From Candidatus Micrarchaeota archaeon (GTDB taxonomy: Archaea; Micrarchaeota; Micrarchaeia; Norongarragalinales; Norongarragalinaceae): a stretch of 64,000 bases of DNA. The notes under the pieces were generated by a model that searched no databases, was not told where the DNA came from, and saw only the letters and a program-made list of their open reading frames with translations. The position numbers were made by a program, and so were the translations under genes. Positions 37,952-58,928 of the stretch are shown here, one piece after another. Location of the stretch: positions 50,110 to 114,109 of the forward strand of contig JBBIMI010000001.1 of assembly GCA_037444485.1 (NCBI GenBank), given 5' to 3'. Every line of letters starts with the position of its first letter. Within the stretch, counting starts at the first letter, position 1.

Positions 37952-38079
37952 GGGCTCGTAGCTCAGCTTGGCAGAGCGACCGGCTCTTAAGCGAAAAACT
38001 AAGCGAAAAACAGCAAGCGTTGTTTTTCTCGCGGTTTCGGGAAACCGGTAGGTCGAGGGTCCGAATCCCTCCGAGCCCG
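37952..38079 (+). tRNA. tRNA-Lys(CTT) with 54-nt anticodon-loop intron (about 37990-38043)
   Basis: GGGCTCG TA GCTC AGCTTGGCA GAGC G ACCGG CTCTTA[intron]A CCGGT AGGTC GAGGG TCCGAAT CCCTC CGAGCCC G. Confidence 0.9.
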
Positions 38080-57670: not shown

Positions 57671-57805
57671 TTTTCTTCTCCTCCGGCAGTAAGCCTGCTT
57701 TTGCAGGCATTTTCGCCCAACTAGTTGAAAAACATTAGAAAAAAAGGGTTTTTAAACTTGAGTCAACCTCGCTGCCAGTGAATTAAATAAGCGGGCCCGC
57801 CGGGA

Positions 57806-58033
57806 TTCTCGTGCACTTTTTTCTTAAATTTTTTTCTTTTCCTAACAGTTTTTTTTTAAGTCTCTCCAATTCTTTCTTTTCCAAGGTTTTTTCTTTTCTT
57901 TAAAGAAAAAAGCTTTTTTCCAAGGTTTTTTCTTTTCTTTAAAGAAAAAAGCTTTTTTCCAAGGTTTTTTCTTTTCTTTAAAGAAAAAAGCTTTTTTCCA
58001 AGGTTTTCTTTCTTTCCAAGAAAGAAAAGCTTT
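57806..58033 (-). other. tRNA-Arg T-loop intron at 59/60 (228 nt)
   Basis: Central helix TTCG/CGAG, bulges AA|A and AA|T, T-stem as outer helix. Confidence 0.82.
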
Positions 58034-58035
58034 TT
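57881..58035. repeat. 39-nt tandem repeat, three exact copies plus one variant
   Basis: CCAAGG starts at 57881, 57920, 57959 and 57998; no spacers. Confidence 0.9.
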
Positions 58036-58054
58036 CGAACCCGGGACCACGGCT

Positions 58055-58103
58055 GTCCGCAAACACGCCTGCTTTTTCAGCGGTTTTCTTGCGTCCGCGT
58101 TTT
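58055..58103 (-). other. tRNA-Arg intron at 37/38 (49 nt)
   Basis: Full BHB: helix TTGC/GCGG, bulges GG|A and AC|A, inner AAACGCG/CGTGTTT. Confidence 0.9.
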
Positions 58104-58302
58104 CCGCAAGCCGTTAGTTTATCCAGGCTAGCCTACGGGCCCGTTTTGCAAACAATTTTTGGCGTTTCTTGATTAAATAATGTTGTTGTAGGCGAGTGGG
58201 AGTGGCTTATAAAAACTAGTGAGTGCAAAACTTTTTGTTTATTTTCGTTTTTTAGTAAAGGTTTAATTCCGGGTTTTTTGTTTTTTCGGTGGGTGGTTTA
58301 TA

Positions 58303-58458
58303 GTGAAGGTTTGCAGTAGTTGTGGTAGGCAGTCGAGCGAGTTCGTTGAATTCTTTTGTCCTGGCGAAAGTTGTAGTGGAAAAATAGTTCGCTGCAAGGC
58401 GTGCCGTGAGAACAGCATCAAGTGGAAGTGTGGAAAGTGCGGGGCGAGCGGGCCGTAA
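58303..58458 (+). CDS. DUF1610 (HVO_2753-like) zinc-finger protein
   Basis: Manual translation MKVCSSCG...FFCPGESC...IVRCKACR...KCGKCGASGP. Confidence 0.88.
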   Translation: MKVCSSCGRQSSEFVEFFCPGESCSGKIVRCKACRENSIKWKCGKCGASGP

Positions 58459-58895
58459 AACTGGTTATGGCGTCCGGCGTTTTCGACGTTCTTCACCCCG
58501 GGCACGTGGATTTTCTCTCGAAAGCGCGGGCTTTAGGCGACGAGCTTTTAGTGGTCGTTGCACGCGATTCAACTGTGCGGCGAGCGAAGAAAAGCGAGCC
58601 TTTGTTTGACGAGGACGCGCGGCTGGCGCTAGTGCAGGCTTTAAAACCGGTTTCGCTTGCTGTGCTCGGTAACGAAATAAAAAAGAAAAACGATTTTTTT
58701 GAAGTCGTACGGCGATTCAAGCCAGCAGTAATTGCGTTAGGCTACGACCAGAAAATCAACGAGAAAGAATTAAAGAAAAAACTCGAAGAACTTGCCTTGA
58801 AAGTTAAGGTCGTGCGGCTCCCTGCATTTGAGCCGAAGCGCTTCAAGAGTTCGTTAATCAAGAAACGCGTTCGTGAAACGGTGCGGTTGGCGTGA
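58422..58895 (+). CDS. ribL: FAD synthase (archaeal); start uncertain
   Basis: MASGVFDVLHPGH, VVVARD, LGYDQ. Confidence 0.85.
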   Translation: MEVWKVRGERAVKLVMASGVFDVLHPGHVDFLSKARALGDELLVVVARDSTVRRAKKSEPLFDEDARLALVQALKPVSLAVLGNEIKKKNDFFEVVRRFKPAVIALGYDQKINEKELKKKLEELALKVKVVRLPAFEPKRFKSSLIKKRVRETVRLA

Positions 58896-58928
58896 GGGGC
58901 GGTGCGTTAGAGGAGGTGAATTGGTTTT

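Follow-up and report, generated by a model that had tools for sequence, protein, structure and literature searches.

The stretch of DNA analyzed here, a window of 64,000 nucleotides (nt) from a Candidatus Micrarchaeota archaeon of the Norongarragalinales, carries on its minus strand a tRNA-Arg(GCG) gene with two introns, the second of which lies in the T-loop and contains tandem copies of a short hairpin module. Coordinates are window positions unless prefixed by genome and contig; G-numbers stand for genomes, with G000 being the host's own assembly (961,727 bp in 58 contigs, 95% complete), C-numbers for contigs of G000, and L-numbers for fetched loci. The gene occupies 57792..58142 (−), that is, 351 nt for a 74-nt tRNA body with no encoded CCA, as called by ARAGORN after in silico removal of the insert. 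Exon 1 (58104..58142, −) covers tRNA positions 1 to 37 and ends with the anticodon GCG and G37. It is followed by a canonical 37/38 intron of 49 nt (58055..58103, −) with a strict hBHBh' structure, a bulge-helix-bulge (BHB) arrangement with a central helix H of TTGC/GCGG, an outer helix h of 5 bp, and an inner helix h' of 7 bp. Exon 2 (58034..58054, −; positions 38 to 59) ends in TTCGAA, the T-loop intron at 59/60 extends over 228 nt (57806..58033, −), and exon 3 (57792..57805, −) provides positions 60 to 73.

Standard searches do not see this gene. ARAGORN with default settings called no tRNA in the whole window, Rfam at the gathering score did not detect tRNA-Arg(GCG) and gave a sole tRNA match in the window at 37952-38079, and T-loop-split tRNAs still gave no match when the Rfam threshold was set at E<=0.01. 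Once the insert was deleted in silico, with all nearby boundaries tried, ARAGORN returned a tRNA-Arg(gcg) with the additional 49-nt canonical intron, and a T-loop of 7 nt was recovered only with the cut between A59 and U60. The joined exons give a standard cloverleaf with the T-loop TTCGAAT in ARAGORN. The spliced tRNA also aligns along its length with the tRNA-Arg(GCG) of three relatives in which the T-loop is uninterrupted (G012, G006, and G019, the last keeping the canonical intron only); these genes came from fetched radA loci and were called with ARAGORN. The canonical introns of G000 (49 nt) and G019 (41 nt) have their first 9 bases in common. Because standard tRNA finders miss such genes entirely, the tRNA complements of DPANN archaea based on metagenome-assembled genomes (MAGs) are underestimated.

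The T-loop insertion could be taken to have killed this tRNA, with an undetected gene supplying tRNA-Arg(GCG) in its place. A 95%-complete assembly in 58 contigs could indeed miss a second copy, and none was found in it with exon 1 as the query. A dead gene nevertheless seems scarcely credible to us: the exons are intact, the cloverleaf is normal, the BHB is exact, and ten other tRNA genes of this genome have like introns. The codons concerned are also heavily used, with CGC being the commonest arginine codon (25.5 per 1000) and CGT reaching 6.8 per 1000 in G000 open frames of at least 300 codons.

The ends of the 228-nt intron are defined by its splice geometry. A geometric BHB scan found one solution that encloses all of the hairpin units, and it is exactly 228 nt long. 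The central helix TTCG/CGAG pairs at 4 of 4 positions, including one G-U; it is bordered by AA|A and AA|T as bulges, and the 5-bp T-stem serves as outer helix h. Both introns of the gene thus have the features that define a BHB, 3-nt bulges on opposite strands of a 4-bp helix, and joining the exons restores a standard tRNA. The initial annotation, made from the sequence of this stretch, had described a tRNA-Arg(GCG) split at 59/60 by 228 nt with the same helix and bulges, and ARAGORN and the BHB scan bear this out. It had placed the insert at 57806..58035; the 3' limit at 57806 stands, but the range is 2 nt too long and takes in the exon bases A58 and A59, the intron being 58033-57806. The canonical intron and the genome-wide dispersal of the unit are additions to that annotation.

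The enzymes expected to process such a precursor are present in G000. There is a single EndA of 388 amino acids, which matches Protein Data Bank (PDB) entry 4fz2 along its full length, over residues 13-388 (E 6.8e-128); the entry is titled 'tRNA intron endonuclease', and we take it to be the epsilon2 EndA of ARMAN-2. Judged by this match, the G000 enzyme is of the epsilon2 type. There is also a single rtcB. An epsilon2-type EndA would cut both 3-nt bulges in one excision, RtcB would join the tRNA-Arg(GCG) exons, and the excised 228 nt would probably be released in circular form, as expected from known archaeal biology. Inside the repeat array, 34 further BHB-like combinations of strict geometry were counted, compared with 2.7 +/- 0.9 in 200 shuffles. 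None of them reaches an exon, and their origin is low-complexity complementarity. Stepwise trimming of the 228-nt intron would be possible in principle and would leave the tRNA unaffected. Excision unit by unit, in pieces of 39 nt, was considered and rejected, as the unit junctions, read by eye, pair as a perfect palindrome with no bulges; the array does have BHB-like combinations of lengths other than 39 nt.

The intron has no recognizable guide RNA or ribozyme. The 228 nt contain no C box (RUGAUGA), D box (CUGA), or ACA motif, and Rfam at E<=0.01 over the fetched locus (L001) gave no match and no snoRNA or sRNA family, in agreement with the earlier remark that this long T-loop BHB intron has no C/D boxes. 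The group I and group II ribozyme models of Rfam matched nothing in the window, in L001, or in the rRNA locus.

What the intron does contain is an array of hairpin units. In the direction of transcription it opens with an A-type unit (57994..58033, −; G000:C1:108103-108142), which covariance model R1 matches with 66.7 bits and whose opening bases double as 5' splice junction and as 5' strand of h'. Three identical B-type units with a 39-nt period follow (57877..57994, −), delimited with Tandem Repeats Finder, a regular expression, and R1. The remainder is a purine-rich tail of degenerate 17-nt periodicity (57806..57876, −) that ends ..AAAAAAGTGCA CGAG AA, bases that supply the 3' strand of h', the strand H', and the bulge on the 3' side. 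In Tandem Repeats Finder the repeat extends over 57877-58035 with a period of 39, 4.1 copies, and 94% matches. The three exact 39-nt units and one variant described in the initial annotation are three identical B-type units and one A-type unit, and the strings it had pointed out, a unit junction resembling the real junction and the self-complementary GAAAAAAGCTTTTTTC and CTTTAAAG, are present in the sequence.

The module of ~39 nt consists of AAGC, a T-rich arm, a loop of 3-6 nt, an A-rich arm, and then CCUUGGAAAA. Over 22 distinct copies, 97.2% of the cells of the 10-bp hairpin are paired. Between subtypes A and B, three pairs differ in both partners (22 cells), a value that 0 of 500 shuffles equaled and for which slid controls gave 0-1; because there are essentially two subfamilies, this covariation represents few independent events. 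In all of the intron copies examined, from G000 and from relatives, AAGCUUUU, with which the module begins at its 5' end, makes up the 5' splice junction and takes part in the inner helix. AAGC starts either directly at the 5' splice site or a single base further on, and the inner helix can arise by its pairing with an AAAAGC-like stretch close to the intron's 3' end. The locus-specific part is the last ~6 nt of the intron, comprising the H' strand and bulge, which complement the four exon bases before the 5' bulge. In four T-loop introns the H' strands CGAG, CGAA, CGGA, and CGGG face the exon sequence TTCG, while CCTT faces AAGG in rtcB and GTTA faces TAAC in 23S. The likeness between unit and junction had at first been read as self-mimicry arising from this locus, a view that does not hold; instead, a dispersed module makes the junction with its 5' end. 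Every unit resembles the junction because the first unit is the junction and the remaining units copy that kind of unit.

The A-rich arm, CCTTGG, and the following GAAAAGAAAGAA constitute a direct and mirror purine repeat beside an inverted repeat (e.g., at 57994-58033 and in the tails of L059-L065). We mention purely as an idea that module DNA could take hairpin or triplex forms that favor replication slippage.

A search for the unit elsewhere in the genome had been proposed as a check, and BLAST on G000 finds it on eleven contigs. A loose regular expression counted 38 units at 22 loci, a hidden Markov model of those units run with nhmmer counted 51, and covariance model R1 counted 45 (E<=0.001). 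Reading the flanks by eye, which is how all module site contexts were assigned, places the module at about 28 sites in G000. Eleven tRNA genes serve as hosts, at four or more tRNA positions: introns interrupt the T-loop, the anticodon loop, the D-loop, and the neighborhood of positions 28/29. The T-loop introns belong to genes labeled by ARAGORN as Arg-GCG, Trp-CCA, Val-CAC, and Val-TAC, plus one more, and the anticodon-loop introns to Thr-CGT, Glu-TTC, and Pro-CGG. Two near-identical module introns sit near tRNA positions 28/29, and one Glu-CTC gene has two module introns; ARAGORN labels were unstable for the tRNA genes at C4:28786, C14:2157, and C21:8329, which were left unnamed. The rRNA operon has five module sites inside 16S/23S and one in the spacer, and one module intron lies in the rtcB coding sequence.

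Nine further copies begin 0-10 nt past the stop codon of the upstream gene, the open frame of which has 57-604 codons and ends 1-10 nt ahead of AAGC (C5:27479, C6:2328, C6:11675, C13:10144, C16:9120, C29:6768, C29:7611, C29:8104, and C2:104, which equals C5:209). At four of them the last two bases of the TAA stop are at the same time the AA of the module, and the spacers onward to the next gene are purine-rich repeats. No antisense copies were seen in G000, every copy being in the sense orientation of its host gene. These post-stop copies were also considered as introns and rejected, the enclosing BHB candidates being only weak and chance-like (h of 3-5 bp). The module would persist because it sits in places that are spliced out, in tRNA, rRNA, and rtcB mRNA, or just past gene ends.

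The other host loci have features of their own. The 16S gene on C12 (L043:1660-12722, minus strand) spans 2,959 nt for a model of 1,478 positions, and 23S on the same contig gives matches in at least 6 pieces over ~6.7 kb. At least 5 inserts in the operon contain the hairpin module, and one C12 module insert is a 141-nt BHB intron with a 9-bp outer helix within positions 2352-2519 of the large subunit rRNA. At C5:4020-4580 (L045), a Trp(CCA)-labeled tRNA has a 140-nt 59/60 intron with three B-type units; its T-arm and 3' acceptor sequence are identical to those of tRNA-Arg(GCG), and exchange between the two genes through these identical flanks is conceivable.

The rtcB gene, located outside of the window at G000:C30:2925-4321 (L044, L054-L056), is in three pieces. 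The first insert is an in-frame, stop-containing sequence of 51 nt inside ..MPDGHEG(Y)|GFPIGG.., has a strict BHB (H AAGG/CCTT, long inner helix), and has the hairpin module as its interior. The second, of ~35 nt at GGVGY|DINCG, begins AGCTTTTT like the first. The first site is common to G015, G020, G011, G031, and G009, where the interiors are unrelated and GC-rich, and the second to G014 and G022; an intein is found near the second site in other relatives. The RadA of G004, G010, G013, G014, G017, G019, and G015 has one in-frame TAG, TGA, or TAA within an otherwise full-length match, and these single stops could be further mRNA mini-introns. In other relatives, radA open frames of 750-1,088 amino acids suggest inteins.

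The array could alternatively be explained as private slippage, its repeats having been born from the intron's own junction with no relatives elsewhere. The three exact tandem copies fit such an origin, but the unit's presence at about 28 sites in G000 and in 34 other genomes of the order, together with its identity to a 23S intron, refutes slippage as a full account. We give it almost no credence in that form, and it survives only as a growth step. The identity in question covers 48 nt, comprising the last B unit and the start of the tail, and occurs once, in a 23S rRNA intron that also begins with an A unit; the other B units of G000 differ in the loop. Tandem arrays also exist on C16 (4 units) and C19 (3 units) and at C5:4242 and C5:27479 (3 units each). 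Growth by duplication is most likely, given three B units that do not differ from one another and a single occurrence of the unit in the closest relative, the 23S intron. On the simplest reading, an intron of one or two units, whose closest copy is that of the 23S rRNA, would have been enlarged by local tandem duplication of the B unit, and the enlargement would have been tolerated because BHB introns can vary freely in their interior. The initial annotation had proposed an intron expanding by serial re-insertion or slippage; its expansion is retained in the form of unit duplication, and no evidence was found for re-insertion.

The family is also found beyond G000. In the comparison set of 68 genomes of the order, representing 35 genera, R1 had matches in 35 genomes and 17 genera, with 0-45 per genome and G000 having the most. 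The 33 of 68 genomes in which R1 found no match include several that are 90-97% complete. The exact A-unit pattern occurs at 7 loci in 5 named Micrarchaeota MAGs, 7/7 in tRNA genes with AAGC at the 5' junction. In metagenome contigs it occurs at 17 loci, including orthologues of two G000 post-stop copies (L109, L114); viral contigs had 0 loci of this pattern, and metagenome contigs had 0 loci of the exact 29-nt 5' junction. Relatives and metagenomes also have the module directly after the 3' ends of tRNA or other RNA genes or after stop codons (L083, L141, L109/L114/L116/L117). In two metagenome contigs (L112, L115) the module comes after the 3' end of a complete tRNA, and ~190 nt on there is another copy of the T-arm and acceptor 3' half of that tRNA, as though inserted DNA were flanked by a duplicated tRNA end.

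Relatives mostly have introns with one unit, about 55-60 nt in length. In G060, 14 of 25 R1 loci were fetched, 13 of which are in tRNA genes, mostly in the T-arm, and 1 after a stop codon. The tRNA-Arg(GCG) gene of G060 has a one-unit T-loop intron of about 60 nt. This T-loop intron is absent in G012, G019, and G006, which belong to G000's own family, and present in G060, which belongs to another family; this would mean repeated gain or repeated loss.

Sequencing runs were consulted as Logan contigs, and part of the window is present in 2 of the 4 runs listed, X1 being the probable source run. X2, from a second study, contains a related organism that is ~93% identical over radA; there the last 15 nt of the intron are common and the sequences then diverge. 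This contig weakly supports an intron that is real, with a labile interior.

Taken together, we consider it probable, at roughly 65%, that the insert is a genuine 59/60 BHB intron built of tolerated, amplifying copies of a dispensable, spreading hairpin family, the selfish nature of which we infer from its distribution. Several observations weigh against this interpretation and are gathered here with the alternatives they favor. The first concern the fold. The inner helix h' of the 59/60 intron is imperfect, with 4/8 pairs in register, and a longer h' is obtained, by eye, only if an asymmetric start is allowed; such an h' fits a relaxed motif of the kind accepted by epsilon2 EndA (PMC3239211). 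The free-energy minimum of the whole precursor does not contain the T-arm BHB, with the fold constrained to it having −97.7 kcal/mol versus −99.1 kcal/mol for the free minimum, a gap of 1.4.

T-runs raise a second difficulty. Archaeal RNA polymerase terminates at oligo-T, and T6 and T4 runs lie inside the intron directly 3' of the 5' splice site. Oligo-T tracts inside essential tRNA genes sit oddly with known termination, so that read-through would be needed. Across G000, T5+ runs have a frequency of 2.06 per kb in sense and 4.60 per kb in antisense, and 214/640 crude genes have T5+ at most 60 nt after the stop. The T6 and T4 runs of the intron would suit a split gene in which transcription stops at the T-runs of the first unit and the 14-nt 3' exon is made separately and joined in trans, as for the split tRNAs of Nanoarchaeum, an idea to which an A/T-rich TTTAAG ~17 nt before the 3' splice site also lends itself. 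However, a transcript starting after that TTTAAG box would be without the CGAG strand needed for the BHB, the two halves lie on one strand with 228 nt between them and are closed by a helix of the kind usual for cis introns, and the ~60-nt one-unit versions in relatives are too short for a promoter. We regard a split gene as very improbable.

A third set of points concerns the array itself, the unit copy number of which rests on one short-read assembly. Logan contigs of X1 end at 57898 and start at 58006, none bridges the array, and word depth within it is 130-620 versus 28 in the flanks. The intron could accordingly be real and the number of B units, three, an assembly error made in resolving a dispersed 39-nt repeat with short reads. 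This is unlikely, though well short of negligible, in our view: unique sequence flanks the array within about 140 nt, which 150-nt reads or read pairs could span, and arrays of 3-4 units occur at four other loci.

A fourth point is the history of the insertion. The intron-free relatives were found with ARAGORN, which is blind to T-loop introns, and 26 other radA loci gave no Arg(GCG); because the program detects only uninterrupted T-loops, the count of T-loop-intron absences is biased. With G060, of another family, having a T-loop intron in the same tRNA, an old presence with repeated loss is as possible as a recent gain.

Finally, two observations favor function over mere persistence. The strict sense placement right after stop codons is unexplained by a purely selfish model, and exact module conservation across genera in which RadA is only ~65% identical could mean function. 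The strongest rival to our interpretation is a selected RNA or DNA signal captured by introns or having to be made from them. It might act behind genes as a terminator or other 3'-end element or in transcript stability, or might help the precursor to fold so that the endonuclease meets the BHB. All of the non-intron copies in G000 (9/9) are placed after stops in sense, four sharing the TAA, the placement is equal in relatives and metagenomes and after the 3' ends of tRNA and noncoding RNA genes, and the hairpin, exactly conserved in sequence across genera, is maintained by compensatory changes. Archaeal terminators, moreover, use T-rich tracts such as the module arm. On the other side, the module is dispensable, being absent from 33/68 genomes including 90-97% complete ones, a terminator would do harm in the rRNA operon and within 11 tRNA genes, and no Rfam family matched. 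The T-runs of the intron fit neither view easily. A functional signal thus appears to us to be an unlikely explanation, and we retain the dispensable, spreading hairpin family as the preferred one.

How this hairpin family spreads may be approached from the candidate mobilizers in G000. No match to reverse transcriptase (RVT_1) was found in the 95%-complete assembly. Fragments of Y1 (IS200/IS605-type) transposases are present at C17:3-206, C26:95-199, C27:81-185, and C19:8530-8706; because three of these are at contig starts, they suggest a multi-copy insertion sequence that breaks the assembly. A link between Y1 and the module was looked for: the repeated segments around C19:8530-8706 are another repeat, and no module-transposase unit was found. 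A different repeat of ~100-350 nt is common to C19, C3, C12, C51, and C23. Among the G000 copies, the left junctions upstream of AAGC have no common target and no target duplication.

More tentatively, and with more doubt than confidence, the module may be a self-contained, sense-only mobile cassette that brings its own 5' junction and inner helix, needs ~6 matched 3' bases, makes new tRNA, rRNA, and mRNA introns, and lodges in 3' untranslated tails, which require no splicing. Y1 single-strand transposases acting on the non-template strand are possible mobilizers. If true, no archaeal element would have been caught before in the making of protein-spliced introns, and growth in tandem would follow as a second step.

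Two observations concern the gene's surroundings. The window has a second intron-bearing tRNA at 37952-38079 (+), called by ARAGORN as Lys(CTT) with a 54-nt intron and scored by Rfam as a tRNA at 51.9 bits. The tRNA-Arg(GCG) gene of relatives faces small zinc-ribbon and cytidylyltransferase-like genes (L040, L041), and that of G000 faces radA (window 57792-58900); because it points the opposite way in G000, a local inversion of the gene is suggested.

It is not settled by what route the protein-spliced introns of archaea come to occupy new sites, and the tRNA-Arg(GCG) locus offers a tractable case. The core is recognizable and conserved, one architecture is common to tRNA, rRNA, and mRNA introns and post-gene copies, relatives appear to differ in presence and absence, and growth in tandem can be seen. 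No general arrival route emerged from a 2026 census of tRNA introns in Asgard archaea (preprint 10.64898/2026.10.13.758758). Our full-text literature search turned up no account of Micrarchaeota introns that share a hairpin family or of an mRNA intron in rtcB, and none of the tandem growth of this hairpin family in introns or of its copies in rRNA or mRNA introns and behind genes. Already published are 59/60 introns and the epsilon2 enzyme, from ARMAN-2, and shared tRNA intron sequences, from Thermoproteales.

Several known systems resemble parts of what is described here. A long archaeal tRNA-Trp intron carries a box C/D guide RNA; the G000 intron is likewise unusually long, but has no C/D box or Rfam match. 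The bacterial REP, BIME, and REPIN repeats are short palindromic hairpins, often in tandem, that follow gene ends and are mobilized by RAYT (Y1) transposases. The module is similarly short, multi-copy, palindromic, often tandem, and found behind genes, in a genome with Y1 fragments. In contrast, REPs are not known as intron cores, and the left junctions of the module show neither target duplication nor a fixed target.

Among protein-spliced introns, the cbf5 pre-mRNA of Crenarchaeota is interrupted by a BHB intron (Yokobori et al. 2009, PMC2738675), and rtcB of G000 is likewise a protein-coding gene with a BHB intron, although the gene and lineage are different and the interior of the rtcB intron is the hairpin module of tRNA introns. 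Closer in phylogeny, ARMAN-2 (Ca. Micrarchaeum acidiphilum) has 59/60 BHB introns in pre-tRNA-Cys(GCA), of 13 nt, and in pre-tRNA-Pro(GGG), which is interrupted at both 53/54 and 59/60, and in vitro its epsilon2 EndA is able to cut a 59/60 intron of 13 nt (Fujishima et al. 2011, PMC3239211). The G000 intron agrees with these in phylum, tRNA position, EndA type, and a BHB or relaxed BHB. It differs in being 228 rather than 13 nt long and in having a body made of a tandem, dispersed module; the portions of PMC3239211 drawn on here do not describe shared intron sequence.

The nearest parallel for the sharing itself is in Thermoproteales, where intron sequences are shared across tRNAs by a transposition of unknown mechanism, presumed to operate on DNA (Fujishima et al. 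2010, Mol Biol Evol 27:2233, as summarized in PMC3239211 and PMC4090602). G000 also has closely similar introns in different tRNA species and positions, in 11 tRNA genes. Compared with the Thermoproteales families as they are summarized there, G000 represents a different phylum and endonuclease type, and its family extends to rRNA and mRNA introns and to positions behind genes, with a module that is conserved across genera and amplifies in tandem within introns.

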